This document shows, in pieces, positions 13,768 to 18,644 of a stretch of DNA of 64,000 nt (the first letter of the stretch is position 1; each line of letters starts with the position of its first letter). The DNA lies in sequence record OR354826.1; one strand, given 5' to 3'. The position numbers were made by a program, and so were the translations under genes. Below the pieces are notes generated by a model. That model ran no database searches. It was not told the DNA's origin and saw only the letters and a list, made by a program, of their open reading frames with translations. Source of the stretch: Staphylococcus phage S-CoN_Ph3.

Positions 13768-14244
13768 ATGTCAAAAATTAATTGGAAAGTAAGAGCTAAA
13801 AAGAAATCATTTTGGGTTGCTATTGTATCAGCAGTCGCTCTTTTTATTAACAATATTACTGGTGCGTTTGGGTTAGATTATTCAGCGCAGGTTCAAACTG
13901 GTGTTGATATTGTTAGTGCAATTTTAACATTGTTAGCAGGTCTTGGAATTGTTACTGATATGACTACTAAAGGAATCGGAGATAGTGAAATTGCGCAGAC
14001 TTATTCTAAACCACGTAACTCCAAAGACCCAGAACAATATGTTGATTGGATGAAAAATGAATCAAAAGAAACACCAGAAAAGAAAAATTTTGAATTAGAA
14101 GAATTTGATACAAGTAAACCATTTACTGATGATAAAGATGAAGTAGATTTTGATGTTTCTGAATACGAACATGAAGATATTGGTGTTCATGGTAAAAGTG
14201 GAATGCACGATGAAGAAATAAAAGAACAAGAAGTAGATAAGTAG
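13768..14244 (+). CDS. holin, phage_holin_1 (phi11-type)
   Basis: MSKINWKVRAKKK...FGLD...ILTLLAGLGIVTDMTTKGIGDSEIAQTY closely resembles staphylococcal phi11/80alpha-type holins; acidic C-tail; RBS AGAAAGGAA. Confidence 0.7.
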   Translation: MSKINWKVRAKKKSFWVAIVSAVALFINNITGAFGLDYSAQVQTGVDIVSAILTLLAGLGIVTDMTTKGIGDSEIAQTYSKPRNSKDPEQYVDWMKNESKETPEKKNFELEEFDTSKPFTDDKDEVDFDVSEYEHEDIGVHGKSGMHDEEIKEQEVDK

Positions 14245-14844: not shown

Positions 14845-14932
14845 ATGGTAGCAACTTTAACGCATAAAGAAGCCGTAGAATATGTTAAATCATTAGAAGG
14901 AAAATATGTTGACTTTGATGGTTGGTATGGGT
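14845..14932 (+). CDS. endolysin exon 1 (N-terminus of CHAP domain)
   Basis: RBS AGGAGGGG then ATG 14845; MVATLTHKEAVEYVKSLEGKYVDFDGWYG matches CHAP N-terminal region up to the residue before the catalytic QC; ORF then runs into stops. Confidence 0.55.
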
Positions 14933-15207
14933 TAATTGGTAGCCCATGTAAAACTTTTTGAATTGCTGGAAACCCCTAACGTAAAGACGAGGGCAATCAG
15001 CAGCGAAGCTCACATGGTAACAGTGTGTGAACGTTCAACGACTATGTACTATCAATTGATAGGCAGCGGAAAGCACATTTAATATATGTGATGATATAGT
15101 CTGGTCTCATATGAAAATATGAGGCTTTCTTTATGAAAGCTATTAAATGTTATGCAATATTATATAGAAATATATAATAGGAAAGGTATTTAATAAAACA
15201 AAAAACG
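14933..15207 (+). ncRNA. group I self-splicing intron 1 (no ORF)
   Basis: exon end ATGGGT can pair with internal guide GCCCAT 9 nt downstream (P1, G.U at splice site); ends AAAAACG (omega G); contains GAACGTTCAACGACTA and GATATAGTCTGG core motifs shared with intron 2; splicing restores ...DFDGWYG-Y-QCFDLANKYW. Confidence 0.55.
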
Positions 15208-15721
15208 ACCAATGTTTTGATTTAGCTAACAAATATTGGAATAAATTATTTGGTGGACAATTAAAAGGTCAAGGCGCAGCTGATATTCCTAATGTTAATG
15301 ATTTTAGTGGAAAAGCTACTGTTTATCAAAATACAACAAGTTTCTTAGCAAAACCAGGAGATATTGTTGTATGGGGTAGAAACTTTGGTCAAGGATATGG
15401 TCATGTAGCAGTTGTTGTTGAAGCAACATTAGATTATATTGTTGTAATTGAGAATAACTGGTTAGGTGGTGGATGGACTAGTGGACCAGCACAAGGTGGT
15501 ACTGGTTGGGAAAAAGCAACTAGACGCCGTCACAATTACGAGTCTCTTATGTGGTTCATCAGACCAAAATACAAAGACGAGAAAAAAACTGCTAATTATT
15601 CTGCTAAAACTAAAACGAAAAAACCAGCTGCTAAAAAGAAAAAAGCTAAAGAAATAAAACACATTAAAGATACAGTTAACGGTTATAAATTACCAAAACG
15701 TAACGGTAAATTAAAAGGTGT
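15208..15721 (+). CDS. endolysin exon 2 (CHAP catalytic domain and Lys-rich linker); 3' boundary approximate
   Basis: YQCFDLANKYW...GYGHVAVVVE...ENNW CHAP motifs with Cys and His; frame ends in TAA at 15726 unless spliced. Confidence 0.5.
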
Positions 15722-16676
15722 CGTGTAAAATGCCTATAAATTAATTGACTTTTTTATTTCTTTATGATATAATGACTATATATTTATATATATAGGAGGA
15801 TATTATATGAAAGAAATTTGGAAAGATGTTCCTAATTATGAAGGAAAATATCAAGTGTCTAATAAAGGAAGAGTTAAATCAATTAAAAGAACAGTAAAAC
15901 ATAACGGGAGTAAAACTAGGACATTTCCAGAAAAGATTTTAAAACCAAACAAAGTGTCTTTTGATTATTTACAGGTCACATTATATAATAATGGTAAAAG
16001 AAAATGTAGATATATACACAATTTAGTTATGGAATCTTTTATTGGTAAGAAGCCAAACGGTTATGAAGTTAACCATATAGACGAAGATAAATCTAATAAT
16101 CAATTAGAAAATTTAGAATATATAACAAGAAAAGAAAACAATAATTATGGAACTCGAATAGAACGGATGATTAAATCAAACGTTAATGGTAAAAAGAGTA
16201 AAAAAGTCAAAGGGACCCATTTAAAAACAGGAGAAATAGTTATTTTTCCATCAATATCCGAAGCGCAAAGACAAGGATATGGACCAAAAATATCAGAAGT
16301 TTGTAATGGAAAAAGAAACCATTCTGGTGGTTATAAATGGGAATTTATAAAATAGCACTGCATAAGTAGGAAACTCTTATGTACTAAAAACATAAATTGC
16401 TTAGAAGAACCTTAGAGCCTTAATGCCACAATATAGCTGAAAAGACTGTATGAAGGATTAAAAAGTTTAAGGATTGGTTTGTTTAGCATCGCTACTCCTA
16501 AGTTTTTTAGATACGGAGAACGTTCAACGACTAGACGATTGGCTCGTCGTAGGGTTTAAGTAAACTCGAAAGAAGAACTACCTAAGTATTTTATATATGG
16601 TAGAAAGATATAGTCTGGACACGCCTTGTAATGGGGGTGCTAGGAATCGACCTAGAGTTAGATTAACGACCTAATG
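15722..16676 (+). mobile_element. group I intron 2 carrying an HNH homing endonuclease ORF; boundaries approximate (plus or minus a few nt)
   Basis: after HNH ORF a 320-nt region repeats the intron-1 core motifs GAACGTTCAACGACTA (16517) and GATATAGTCTGG (16603); downstream frame resumes VSIHNDAG (amidase domain) matching LysK region after its intron. Confidence 0.5.
15807..16355 (+). CDS. intron-encoded HNH homing endonuclease (NUMOD4 motif plus HNH_3 domain), I-KsaI-like
   Basis: MKEIWKDVPNYEGKYQVSNKGRVKS NUMOD4 signature; HNLVMESF...EVNHIDEDKSNNQLENLEY HNH motif; RBS TATAGGAGGA. Confidence 0.7.
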   Translation: MKEIWKDVPNYEGKYQVSNKGRVKSIKRTVKHNGSKTRTFPEKILKPNKVSFDYLQVTLYNNGKRKCRYIHNLVMESFIGKKPNGYEVNHIDEDKSNNQLENLEYITRKENNNYGTRIERMIKSNVNGKKSKKVKGTHLKTGEIVIFPSISEAQRQGYGPKISEVCNGKRNHSGGYKWEFIK

Positions 16677-17529
16677 AAACGTCTCGATACACAACGATGC
16701 TGGAAGTAAATATGCAACAGCAGAAGCCTATCGTAATGGATTAGTCAATGCTCCATTATCAAGACTTGAAGCAGGTATAGCACATGCTTACGGTTCTGGT
16801 AATACAATTTGGCAAGCATTAGACAAATCACAGGTAGGTTGGCATACAGCAAATCCTGTTGGTAATAACGGTTATTATGGTTATGAAGTTTGTCAGTCTA
16901 TGGGTGCAGATGATAAAACATTCTTAGCGAATGAGCAGTTAATATTCCAAGATGCTGCTAGACTTTTAAAAGAAGAAGGATTACCAGCAAATAGAAACAC
17001 TGTTCGTCTACATTGTGAATTTGTTCGTACTTCATGTCCACATAGAAGTGCTAAGTTACACACAGGATTTGACCCTGTCACTCAAGGTTTATTACCTAAA
17101 GACAAACAACTAAAATTAAAAGATTATTTTATCAAACAAATCAGACAATATATGGACGGTAAAATACCTACTGCAACAGTTGTTAAAAGTTCAAGTGCTT
17201 CTAGCAACACTGTTAAACCAGTAGCATCTGGTTGGAAACGTAATAATTATGGTACTTATTACAAATCAGAAAATGCAACTTATAGCAATGGCAACACACC
17301 AATTATCACACGTACAGTAGGACCATTTAGAAGTTGTGCTCAGGCAGGATTATTACCAGCCGGAGCATCTATTATATATGATACAGTTTGTCTACAAGAC
17401 TATCATGTTTGGGTAAGTTATGTAACTAACAAAGGTTACAGAGTATGGCTACCTATTAGAACATGGAATGGTGTAGCTCCTGGAAACGCAGGATATGCTG
17501 TAGGACCATTATGGGGATATATCAGCTAA
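16677..17529 (+). CDS. endolysin exon 3 (amidase_2 / PGRP domain plus C-terminal SH3b cell-wall-binding domain)
   Basis: [17 protein letters not shown]...[16 protein letters not shown]...[16 protein letters not shown] amidase_2 motifs; C-terminal [11 protein letters not shown]...[15 protein letters not shown]3b-like; spliced product about 484 aa. Confidence 0.6.
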
Positions 17530-17663
17530 AATAAAAGACAGGTTTTATTCTGTATAAAAGTCGTCAACCATGCGCTTTATAAGCGTTTTGCTAGGCGCAC
17601 CTAAATTTTTTACCCTCTACTTTTTATGTAGGGGGTGTTTACATATTAATGGAGGTTATTATA

Positions 17664-18644
17664 ATGGAAAGAAACAATATTTATAGTGAAGAAATATATA
17701 AAAAAGTAAATGATGAATCAAAAGAGCTTTTAAATGATTATATATTAGAGTTAAAGGTTCGTAATCGAGCAGAAAAGACAATTACACAATATGAATTTGA
17801 TTGTAAAATGTTTATGTGTTATGTTTATGATAACATGAACAACAAATCATTACTTGATTTAAAACGCCGAGATTTTAGGAATTTCTTTTTATTCTTAAAA
17901 GAGAGTGGAAAATCAGCAGCAAGAATCAACCGTGTTCAATCTTCAATAAGAAATCTCTTACAGTTTGCCGAAGACGACGAAGAAATATACGAAGATTATG
18001 AAGTTAATCCTATGAGAAAAATTAAATCAGTTGAGAAAGAACCTGTTAGAGAGATTGTGTTCTTAACAGATGAACAAGTTACTTATTTAATTAATTATTT
18101 ATTAGAGAAAGGTAAAACACAAAAAGCATTGTTTGTTAGTTTTGCTTATGATAGCGTAGCTCGTAGAAATGAAATATCACAAGTTCAAAAATATAGTTTC
18201 CAAGACACAACTAAATCAAGCACTAACGAAGTTGTGGGTAAACGTGGAAAGAAATTTAAGTTAATGTATTCTCAGCGTACTAAAGACCTTGCTAAAGAAT
18301 GGCTGTCTGAACGTGGAGAAGATGATGTTGATAGCTTGTGGATAAGTTACTATAATGGTAAACCACGTGCTATTGTATATGACACATTTTATTCTTGGGC
18401 TATATCATTTAGAAGTATATTAGAAGAAAAATACGATGTAGATTTACCATTAAATGCTCACTCGTTCCGTCATAGTGGAGCTGAGAATTATGAAAATGGT
18501 ACACATAGCTCATTACAATTTATGGGTAAAGATAGCTTAAACATAAACGAACTAAAAATATTAATGAATCATGAAAGTATTGATATTACTAATAGTTATT
18601 TAAGAAATAAAGACCAAGAAATATTGGAAAATTTATTCTCATAA
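17664..18644 (+). CDS. tyrosine recombinase / integrase family protein
   Basis: N-terminal SAM-like core-binding region; C-terminal catalytic motifs LNAHSFRHS and ITNSYL (R..HxxR..Y); RBS GGAGG 8 nt before ATG 17664 (ORF track starts 17649). Confidence 0.65.
   Translation: MERNNIYSEEIYKKVNDESKELLNDYILELKVRNRAEKTITQYEFDCKMFMCYVYDNMNNKSLLDLKRRDFRNFFLFLKESGKSAARINRVQSSIRNLLQFAEDDEEIYEDYEVNPMRKIKSVEKEPVREIVFLTDEQVTYLINYLLEKGKTQKALFVSFAYDSVARRNEISQVQKYSFQDTTKSSTNEVVGKRGKKFKLMYSQRTKDLAKEWLSERGEDDVDSLWISYYNGKPRAIVYDTFYSWAISFRSILEEKYDVDLPLNAHSFRHSGAENYENGTHSSLQFMGKDSLNINELKILMNHESIDITNSYLRNKDQEILENLFS

Follow-up and report, generated by a model that had tools for sequence, protein, structure and literature searches.

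A three-exon endolysin gene with two predicted group I introns at active-site codons in Staphylococcus phage S-CoN_Ph3

The endolysin gene of Staphylococcus phage S-CoN_Ph3 raises a simple question: how can a gene whose reading frame is broken twice give a complete lytic enzyme? The gene occupies positions 14845-17529 of a stretch of 64,000 nucleotides (nt) from this phage (sequence record OR354826.1), which is the whole of the DNA that we analysed and which we call the window, and its CHAP, Amidase_2 and SH3_5 domains are readable only as three exons. We argue that it forms one transcription unit, in which three exons separated by two group I introns would code for an endolysin of 480-484 amino acids (aa); we put the probability of this reading at roughly 0.88.

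The ATG at position 14845, which follows a strong Shine-Dalgarno sequence, opens a frame that reads MVATLTHKEAVEYVKSLEGKYVDFDGWYG and meets a stop after 38 codons. Exon 1 ends before that, with ...DFDGWYG, and the CHAP sequence resumes at 15208, as had already been seen in a first examination of the letters alone (hereafter the sequence-only reading). Exon 2 opens with ACCAATGT, in which the first two bases complete the codon of Tyr30 (T/AC, the slash marking a junction here and below) and are followed by the codons of Gln31 and Cys32. In the joined exons Pfam recognises CHAP, Amidase_2 and SH3_5, and over its whole length the joined product is colinear with uninterrupted staphylococcal endolysins of 472-485 aa, of which there are more than 100 (100% query coverage); residues C32, H95, H206, H313 and C321 are invariant. 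The three-exon CHAP-amidase-SH3b gene of the sequence-only reading is therefore borne out by its Pfam domains and by its colinearity with uninterrupted homologs. When the joined exons 1 and 2 are aligned with uninterrupted endolysins at their N-termini, or with CHAP domains of solved structure (LytN, lysin L2, E = 1e-35), no gap appears at the junction, and the predicted peptide that spans it is YVDFDGWYGYQCFDLANK. No spliced protein derived from complementary DNA was found in a collection of 5.8 billion proteins, where the best full-length matches are 65-66% identical, and where an 87% match (P0001) is an open reading frame (ORF) call that starts inside intron 1.

It is well established that introns and inteins are maintained at codons that are strongly conserved and essential for function. 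Cys32 is the invariant nucleophile of the CHAP domain, and intron 1, which has no ORF, splits the codon of Tyr30 after its first base, two codons upstream, so that the Tyr-Gln-Cys region is indeed interrupted as the sequence-only reading had it. His206, the invariant histidine of the HNDAG motif of the amidase, which the structure of LysGH15 reportedly shows as a zinc ligand, follows intron 2 at a distance of one to four codons. Both introns lie where homing elements are typically maintained: in each catalytic domain, the codons concerned are the most conserved ones.

Intron 1 is unambiguously a group I intron, compact and of the phage type. The Rfam family RF00028, whose gathering score is 50 bits, covers positions 14923-15123 over the full model (1-253), with 95.2 bits and E = 3e-23. 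The P1 helix is formed by 6 base pairs between AUGGGU (14927-32) and GCCCAU (14942-47), which lies 9 nt downstream, and has the pair U14932.G14942 at the splice site. The P10 helix, also of 6 base pairs, is formed by AUUGGU (14935-40), which is perfectly complementary to ACCAAU, the first six bases of exon 2 (15208-13), and the last base of the intron is the omega-G, G15207. The P1 pairing, the wobble at the splice site and the terminal G of the 275-nt gap had all been described beforehand, and the covariance model agrees with the group I assignment made then. Minimum free energy folding recovers P1 and P4-P9.2, and the 84-nt 3' part of the intron, beyond the Rfam match, folds into P9.1 and P9.2. 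In the 64 kb there are exactly two copies of each of the core motifs TTCAACGACTA and GATATAGTCTG, one set per intron (15034/15093 and 16523/16607); that the two introns share them had been noted in the sequence-only reading.

Judged by its sequence, the phage is a Sextaecvirus (6ec/SEP9-like) phage of Staphylococcus epidermidis; the members of this genus are siphoviruses of about 90 kb with S. epidermidis as their host. The 3-kb endolysin region is 99.9% identical to that of Staphylococcus phage S-CoN_Ph13, and 97-99.7% identical to those of CF1, BE22, CF9 and 6ec. The strongest evidence for intron 1 is a natural intron-less allele: phage S-CoN_Ph10, which is 99.6% identical elsewhere, lacks exactly the 275 nt and keeps the same length and frame. 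It reads ...TGGTATGGAATGCAATGT... (also given as ...TATGGAATGCAATGT...), whereas the window reads ...TGGTATGGGT(275 nt)ACCAATGT..., hence GMQC versus GYQC. The endolysin ORF of S-CoN_Ph10 (446-973 of our locus L005) stops early, owing to a frameshift in the A-rich linker (KYKDEKKLLIILL...), and the same region of S-CoN_Ph17 (L008; 268 features in 88 kb) shows many small deletions; both are probably sequencing errors, and both records need care.

The sequence-only reading had considered the arrangement unusual, which is not what the comparison gives. Of the 11 Sextaecvirus alleles in the comparison, 10 have intron 1, with a length of 274-317 nt, and the same phase-1 site (in the codon two before Q-C) is occupied in S. 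chromogenes phage PT94, in S. epidermidis phage Southeast, where the intron contains an ORF, and in S. pettenkoferi prophages. The RF00028 scores of relatives range from 59 to 109 bits. The P1 of PT94 is AUGCGU/GCGCAU, a compensatory exchange with respect to intron 1 of the window. The S. pettenkoferi prophage intron (GCA_026660705.1; L031, 1063-1537) has about 475 nt, 92.7 bits and the P1 AUGGGU/GCCCAU. P10 covaries in the relatives of intron 1, being ACUGC/GCAGU in S. pettenkoferi and GUUAU/AUAAC in PMBT8. The PMBT8 intron (L018, 720-1038; 101 bits) is closely related to intron 1 and shares with it the guide GCCCAU and the exon hexamer AUGGGU, but it lies at another AUGGGU/AU site, within an Amidase_3 domain (GHG/YND), with its P10 altered to fit the new 3' exon; it looks as though the intron had spread ectopically to a site with this 6-nt P1 target.

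The case for intron 2 is of another kind: since its Rfam score is below the threshold, its membership of group I rests on other evidence. It has exactly the same P7 (GACUA/UAGUC) and J8/7 motif as intron 1. The consensus fold of seven family members, obtained from RNAalifold and pair counts, comprises P2, P4, an extended P5 arm, P6, P7, P7.1, P7.2, P8, P9, P9.1 and P9.2, in 16 helices with 87 consensus pairs; 97.7% of the cells are paired and 13 pairs carry changes on both sides. None of 500 shuffles reached the observed values, and the slid controls gave at most 3 compensatory pairs. The compensatory changes in these helices point to selection on structure. In the ORF-less form of 332 nt, found in OPT-SC01 and PSU6, P1 is a simple hairpin made of the exon strand GGUGU, the loop AAAAC and the guide GCACU, which places the guide of the window at 16355-59 and the HNH gene in loop L1. 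In phage 85, P1 is formed by GGCGU and GCGCU, a compensatory exchange of U-A for C-G. Last, the site is uninterrupted in SEP9 and S-CoN_Ph14, from which the intron is precisely missing.

The ribozyme half of intron 2 has relatives (82-83% identity over 94% of its length, extending into exon 3) in the endolysin genes of S. aureus phages 85 and X2, of StB20 and of several Twortvirinae (vB_Sau_P68, the PG-2021 isolates, and the ORF-less copies of OPT-SC01 and PSU6). The search for more diverse relatives gave little: a scan of viral contigs gave only phage-85-like prophages, identical at the junctions, a scan of genome contigs with an 18-mer gave 20 matches, all in unrelated taxa and about as many as expected by chance, and a pattern of the P7 region gave only two unrelated introns.

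The ORF that the sequence-only reading had assigned to a NUMOD4-HNH protein has 182 aa, and its NUMOD4 and HNH_3 domains both exceed the Pfam cut-offs. ORFs homologous to it are present in phages 85, StB20 and P68 in the same order, and in the window the G of its stop codon is the first base of the internal guide sequence (IGS). It is preceded by a Shine-Dalgarno sequence and by a predicted promoter (Table 1), at the equivalent place of which vB_Sau_P68 has TTGTAA-17-TATAAT; distinctive promoters ahead of intron-encoded genes were described in the paper on phage fRuSau02 (PMC5618024).

Table 1. Positions in the window of the features of the endolysin locus, including the candidate junctions of intron 2.
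Feature	Position	Strand	Description
Holin gene	13768..14244	+	Pfam Phage_holin_1, E = 3e-28; lysis-module context
Endolysin exon 1	14845..14932	+	29 codons and first base of Tyr30; ends ...DFDGWYG plus T; Shine-Dalgarno AGGAGGGG upstream; contiguous with exon 2 in S-CoN_Ph10 allele
Intron 1, group I, 275 nt	14933..15207	+	Without ORF; RF00028 match; segment exactly missing from S-CoN_Ph10
Intron 1 elements	IGS for P10 14935-40; IGS for P1 14942-47; P3 14954-60/15067-73; P4 14964-69/14997-15002	+	
Intron 1 elements	P7 15040-44/15097-101; P8 15074-90; P9 15106-23; P9.1 15124-40; P9.2 15158-79; omega-G 15207	+	
Endolysin exon 2	15208..15721	+	Remaining CHAP including Cys32 (TGT, 15213-15) and Lys-rich linker; candidate 3' ends 15719, 15720, 15721
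Intron 2, group I (predicted), phage-85 type	15722..16676	+	955 nt with canonical junction; alternatives 15721-16681, 15720-16686
Predicted sigma-70-like promoter	15745..15773	+	TTGACT-17 nt-TATAAT; in P1 loop, upstream of HNH gene; read from sequence
Putative NUMOD4-HNH (I-HmuI-like) homing endonuclease gene	15807..16355	+	182 aa; Pfam NUMOD4 3e-17 (62.8 bits), HNH_3 5e-15 (55.4 bits), I-HmuI_NUMOD-like 3e-4 (weak)
Intron 2 elements	P1 exon strand 15717-21 with IGS GCACU 16355-59; P2 16359-83; P4 16398-401/16485-88; P5/P5a 16407-23/16467-80	+	
Intron 2 elements	P6 16495-98/16515-18; P7 16529-33/16611-15; P7.1 16534-48; P7.2 16552-67; P8 16578-603	+	
Intron 2 elements	P9 16620-39; P9.1 16640-55; P9.2 16657-75	+	
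Endolysin exon 3	16677..17529	+	Amidase_2 (His206 codon 16690-92) and SH3_5; candidate starts 16677, 16682, 16687
Candidate junction A (that of the sequence-only reading)	5' site after U15721; omega-G G16676		KGVNVSIHND, 484 aa, two more than homologs; omega-G 1 nt after P9.2
Candidate junction B	5' site after G15720; omega-G G16681		KGVSIHND, 482 aa, homolog length; G, not U, at position -1
Candidate junction C	5' site after U15719; omega-G G16686		KGIHND, 480 aa, two fewer than homologs; -1 U pairs with A, not G

Exactly where intron 2 is cut is a separate matter. We tentatively favour junction B, which would give the messenger RNA (mRNA) AAAGGUG.UCUCGAUACAC and a product of 482 aa, because its length equals that of all uninterrupted homologs; the 484-aa product of junction A is almost as probable, and the 480-aa product of junction C somewhat less so. 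The predicted spliced readings are, respectively, AAAGGTG/TCTCGATACAC, i.e. AAAGGTGTCTCGATACAC, then AAAGGTGT/AAACGTCTCG (GGTGT/AAACG), i.e. AAAGGTGTAAACGTCTCG, and AAAGGT/ATACAC, i.e. AAAGGTATACAC. The spacing K-x-(I/V)-V-(I/L)-HNDAG is constant in all 60 uninterrupted homologs that we inspected. The mRNA of the 482-aa product could also result from cuts after U15721 and U16682, but omega would then be a U and not a G, and junction C fits the tail-length rule but removes two residues of the strand.

The relatives of intron 2 present the same puzzle. In phage 85 (GGCG/UAGUU), StB20 and the LysK-type hosts (GGUG/AUACAC), the in-frame register that gives the homolog length, with an intron ending in the conserved AAACG, is unique; in phage 85 the predicted junction is then AAAGGCG/TAGTTATACAC. 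Compared to phage 85, StB20 has one additional A in the 3' tail, which argues that this tail is intronic. Across Sextaecvirus, phage 85, StB20 and the LysK-type Twortvirinae, no register other than that one nt upstream of the U.G pair keeps both the frame and the homolog length. It may be, although we consider it rather unlikely, that introns of the phage-85 type, intron 2 included, splice non-canonically, one nt upstream of the U.G wobble of P1, with a G paired to C at position -1.

The following sequence of events can be proposed. The late lysis transcript would be made as a precursor of about 2.7 kb, in which both ribozymes would fold and excise themselves with a guanosine cofactor. In intron 1, the guide 5'-AUUGGU-A-GCCCAU-3' would align both exons, by forming P10 with ACCAAU and P1 with AUGGGU; the cut would occur after U14932 and the ligation at G15207/A15208, restoring ...GWYG-Y-QC.... 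In intron 2, the exon strand GGUGU (15717-21) would pair with GCACU (16355-59) across a loop of 633 nt. Only the doubly spliced RNA would give the three-domain enzyme, since translation of the unspliced RNA would end after 38 aa. Intron 2 would also be mobile: in a mixed infection, the HNH enzyme would nick intron-less alleles and repair would copy the intron in. When intron-plus and intron-minus alleles are compared, the exon substitutions are clustered right at both insertion sites, which homing by nick and repair would explain.

Several observations weigh against this reading of the gene, nearly all of them on the side of intron 2. We infer the splicing of both introns from the sequence. 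RF00028 gives intron 2 only 24.4 bits (16392-16638, E = 0.002 in a scan of 3 kb), less than half its gathering score, and has no match at E <= 10 in an ORF-less relative. No P3 was found by hand or by a brute-force search (there is no conserved helix of at least 5 base pairs between J2/3 and the P7-P8 interval), nor was any P10, by hand or by a brute-force helix search. None of the candidate junctions of intron 2 is free of difficulty: under the canonical one, the product has two additional residues and the tail from P9.2 to the omega-G is 1 nt long, against 10-12 nt where related introns have this P9.2 module; under the one of homolog length, position -1 is a G rather than a U. No junction has both the U(-1).G pair and an omega-G in frame in phage 85, StB20 and the LysK-type hosts (L012, L014 and L013/L015/L017). 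The group I nature that the sequence-only reading gave to intron 2 thus stands on the core motifs, the 13 covarying pairs and the intron-less alleles, and not on the covariance model.

One may keep the same architecture and suppose that intron 2 is spliced exactly at U15721 and G16676, giving the 484-aa protein with KGVNVSIHND. We consider this only a little less probable than junction B: it is the only in-frame junction that obeys both group I rules, it retains the VSIHND strand and puts its two extra residues at the boundary between linker and domain, and the Sextaecvirus and LysK-type copies keep the G that immediately follows P9.2. At the position of G16676, however, phage 85 and StB20 lack a G, and the short tail and a product two residues longer than all 60 homologs argue against it. 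The boundaries "about 15722-16676" of the sequence-only reading therefore hold as far as the canonical rules go, but because they add two residues they may not be the true ones. Another view is that intron 2 is a decaying or inefficient ribozyme, so that lysis would be achieved mainly by a CHAP-linker protein of about 203 aa ending in KGVV, at an in-frame stop just inside the intron, the full-length enzyme being minor or absent. The sub-threshold RF00028 score, the missing P3 and the frame paradox in related hosts would fit, as would the lytic activity that CHAP domains of staphylococcal lysins (CHAPk, for example) have on their own. We find this improbable, considering that exon 3 is open and conserved over 283 codons in every carrier, that the RNA helices show compensatory changes, and that ORF-less copies persist in OPT-SC01 and PSU6.

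It is still harder to believe that site 1 is not spliced at all, the protein starting inside or after intron 1 and exon 1 being a separate peptide of 38 aa, even if this is the form that database annotations take (the 428-aa endolysin of SEP9, for instance). As annotated, the SEP9 product begins downstream of Cys32 and is thus deprived of the CHAP nucleophile; the interval scores 95 bits as a group I intron and has a P1 and a P10 to match; exon 1 corresponds to the N-terminal part of uninterrupted homologs and of CHAP domains with a solved structure; and the two exons are fused in the sister phage S-CoN_Ph10. As for the idea that the interruptions are artefacts of assembly or sequencing, or that the gene is a dead pseudogene, we give it hardly any credit: the same three-exon structure is present, at 93-99.9% identity, in phages sequenced independently in the USA, Portugal, the UK and elsewhere. 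No observation in favour of this idea was found. We thus retain a three-exon gene with two group I introns.

Neither intron 1 nor its relatives are annotated as introns in any record that we examined. In Sextaecvirus records, exon 1 is listed as a hypothetical protein of 38 aa and the remainder as a truncated endolysin. The S. pettenkoferi proteins of NCBI (454 aa, "SH3 domain-containing protein") begin with MHGKALNKIYYG/QCFDL, so that their start falls within the intron. At least 14 protein clusters (P0047-P0049, P0051, P0052, P0054, P0057-P0061, P0063, P0068, P0075 and P0078) share this length of 454 aa, and all nine sequences fetched from among them have the false intronic N-terminus. A curated survey of 205 staphylococcal phages lists the SEP9 lysin as a single gene of 428 aa that starts after the Cys, and the 6ec lysin as a 308-aa "CHAP??" concatenation (PMC6507118, supplementary file 8).

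Regarding the neighbourhood, the holin gene is followed by an ORF of unknown function, by the interrupted endolysin gene and, directly downstream of these lysis genes, by a tyrosine recombinase gene (17649-18644, + strand) with Phage_integrase and SAM-like N-terminal domains. A recombinase beside the lysis genes has already been noted for this group of phages, which are regarded as strictly lytic (PMC6507118). The Rfam family RF02897, "Staphylococcus sRNA 808", matches the window at 17085-17339 (+ strand, 189 bits), wholly within exon 3, in the part that codes from the linker to SH3_5; it also matches the endolysin genes of phage 85, BE22, CF9 and S-CoN_Ph14 (188-260 bits). It looks as if this family had been built on a piece of prophage endolysin mRNA, and not on a separate small RNA gene.

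Additional insertions are present in the same gene. BE22 (L003, 2384-3266) and S-CoN_Ph14 (L004, 1463-2344) have a further HNH-bearing insertion after about nt 707 of the coding sequence, with 77 bits for RF00028, and CF9 (L009, 2494-3385) has one after about nt 776, near the classical lysK/I-KsaI site, with a weak score of 27-29 bits; with these, BE22 and CF9 have three introns in one lysis gene. Among the relatives, this gene has up to three introns, which occupy no fewer than four different sites. The LysK-type genes of the Twortvirinae OPT-SC01 (L015) and PSU6 (L016) also have two introns (882-1280 and 1773-2104). The first, of about 399 nt, lies at the codon of Tyr49, five codons before Cys54 (RF00028 64 bits; 5' GGAU/, 3' AAACG/), the second is the ORF-less copy of the phage-85 type before IHNDAG, and exon 1 is annotated as a 52-aa "endolysin chain A".

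It was already known that endolysin genes of staphylococcal phages contain group I introns, that genes of Twort and phage K may contain several, and that some of these introns bear HNH genes (PMC6507118; PMC5618024). What appears to be new is the Cys-proximal CHAP intron, widespread but not annotated, and the presence in Sextaecvirus endolysin genes of two introns, or three in BE22 and CF9, over at least four sites. We found no paper on introns in Sextaecvirus endolysins, in a literature that did not include the SEP9 paper (Melo 2014) and the review of Lavigne & Vandersteegen 2013. There is a practical consequence: anti-staphylococcal enzymes cloned from the annotated ORFs would have a CHAP domain that is truncated or inactive, and only the join of the three exons gives the correct coding sequence. 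From a more fundamental point of view, a single lysis gene here has introns stacked at active-site codons in both of its catalytic domains, and intron-plus and intron-minus alleles in nearly identical phages offer a ready system for studies of homing; the splice-site register of the phage-85 type is a side puzzle.

How does this gene compare with known systems? With the introns of the T4 td type, intron 1 shares the common core (AAUUGC.GGAAA, GUUCAACGACUA, GAUAUAGUCUG) and intron 2 the P9.2 module AGAUUAACGACC. The ORF of td sits in P6, whereas intron 1 has no ORF, and intron 2 has its ORF in L1 and no identifiable P3.

The intron of the phage K (Kayvirus) gene lysK, with its endonuclease I-KsaI, is also a group I intron with an HNH gene within a CHAP-Amidase_2-SH3b staphylococcal endolysin gene, and it is to this one-intron type that the sequence-only reading had linked intron 2. 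We rejected this identity, since the insertion sites differ: the classical lysK genes (A5W, 812, Team1, MSA6) are continuous across the site of intron 2, their break being about 162 nt (54 codons) downstream, at query position 456-462, and the intron 2 ribozyme query matched none of these classical records. We likewise rejected the idea that one of the two introns published for PH15 lies in its endolysin gene, since this gene is continuous.

According to its sequence, intron 2 is instead a member of the endolysin-intron family of phages 85 and X2 (S. aureus) and StB20 (S. capitis), the ribozyme halves being 82-83% identical. These introns have the same helices, bear a NUMOD4-HNH gene at the same position in the P1 loop, and are inserted just before the IHNDAG strand of Amidase_2. 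They differ in that the host phages belong to another genus, that P1 is GGCGU/GCGCU in phage 85, that the 3' tail is longer (AAAACAAACG), and that the intron is the only one in its gene.

Multi-intron genes of Twort and phage K were reportedly described by Landthaler & Shub in 1999 and 2002. In these staphylococcal phages, several self-splicing group I introns, with or without endonuclease ORFs, are found in a single gene: three in orf142 and two in nrdE of Twort, and two in polA of phage K (cited in PMC5618024). Those cases concern other genes of Herelleviridae myoviruses, whereas the present one concerns the endolysin gene of a siphovirus of about 90 kb; the two-intron arrangement is a familiar kind of phage biology, not one that is rare in nature.

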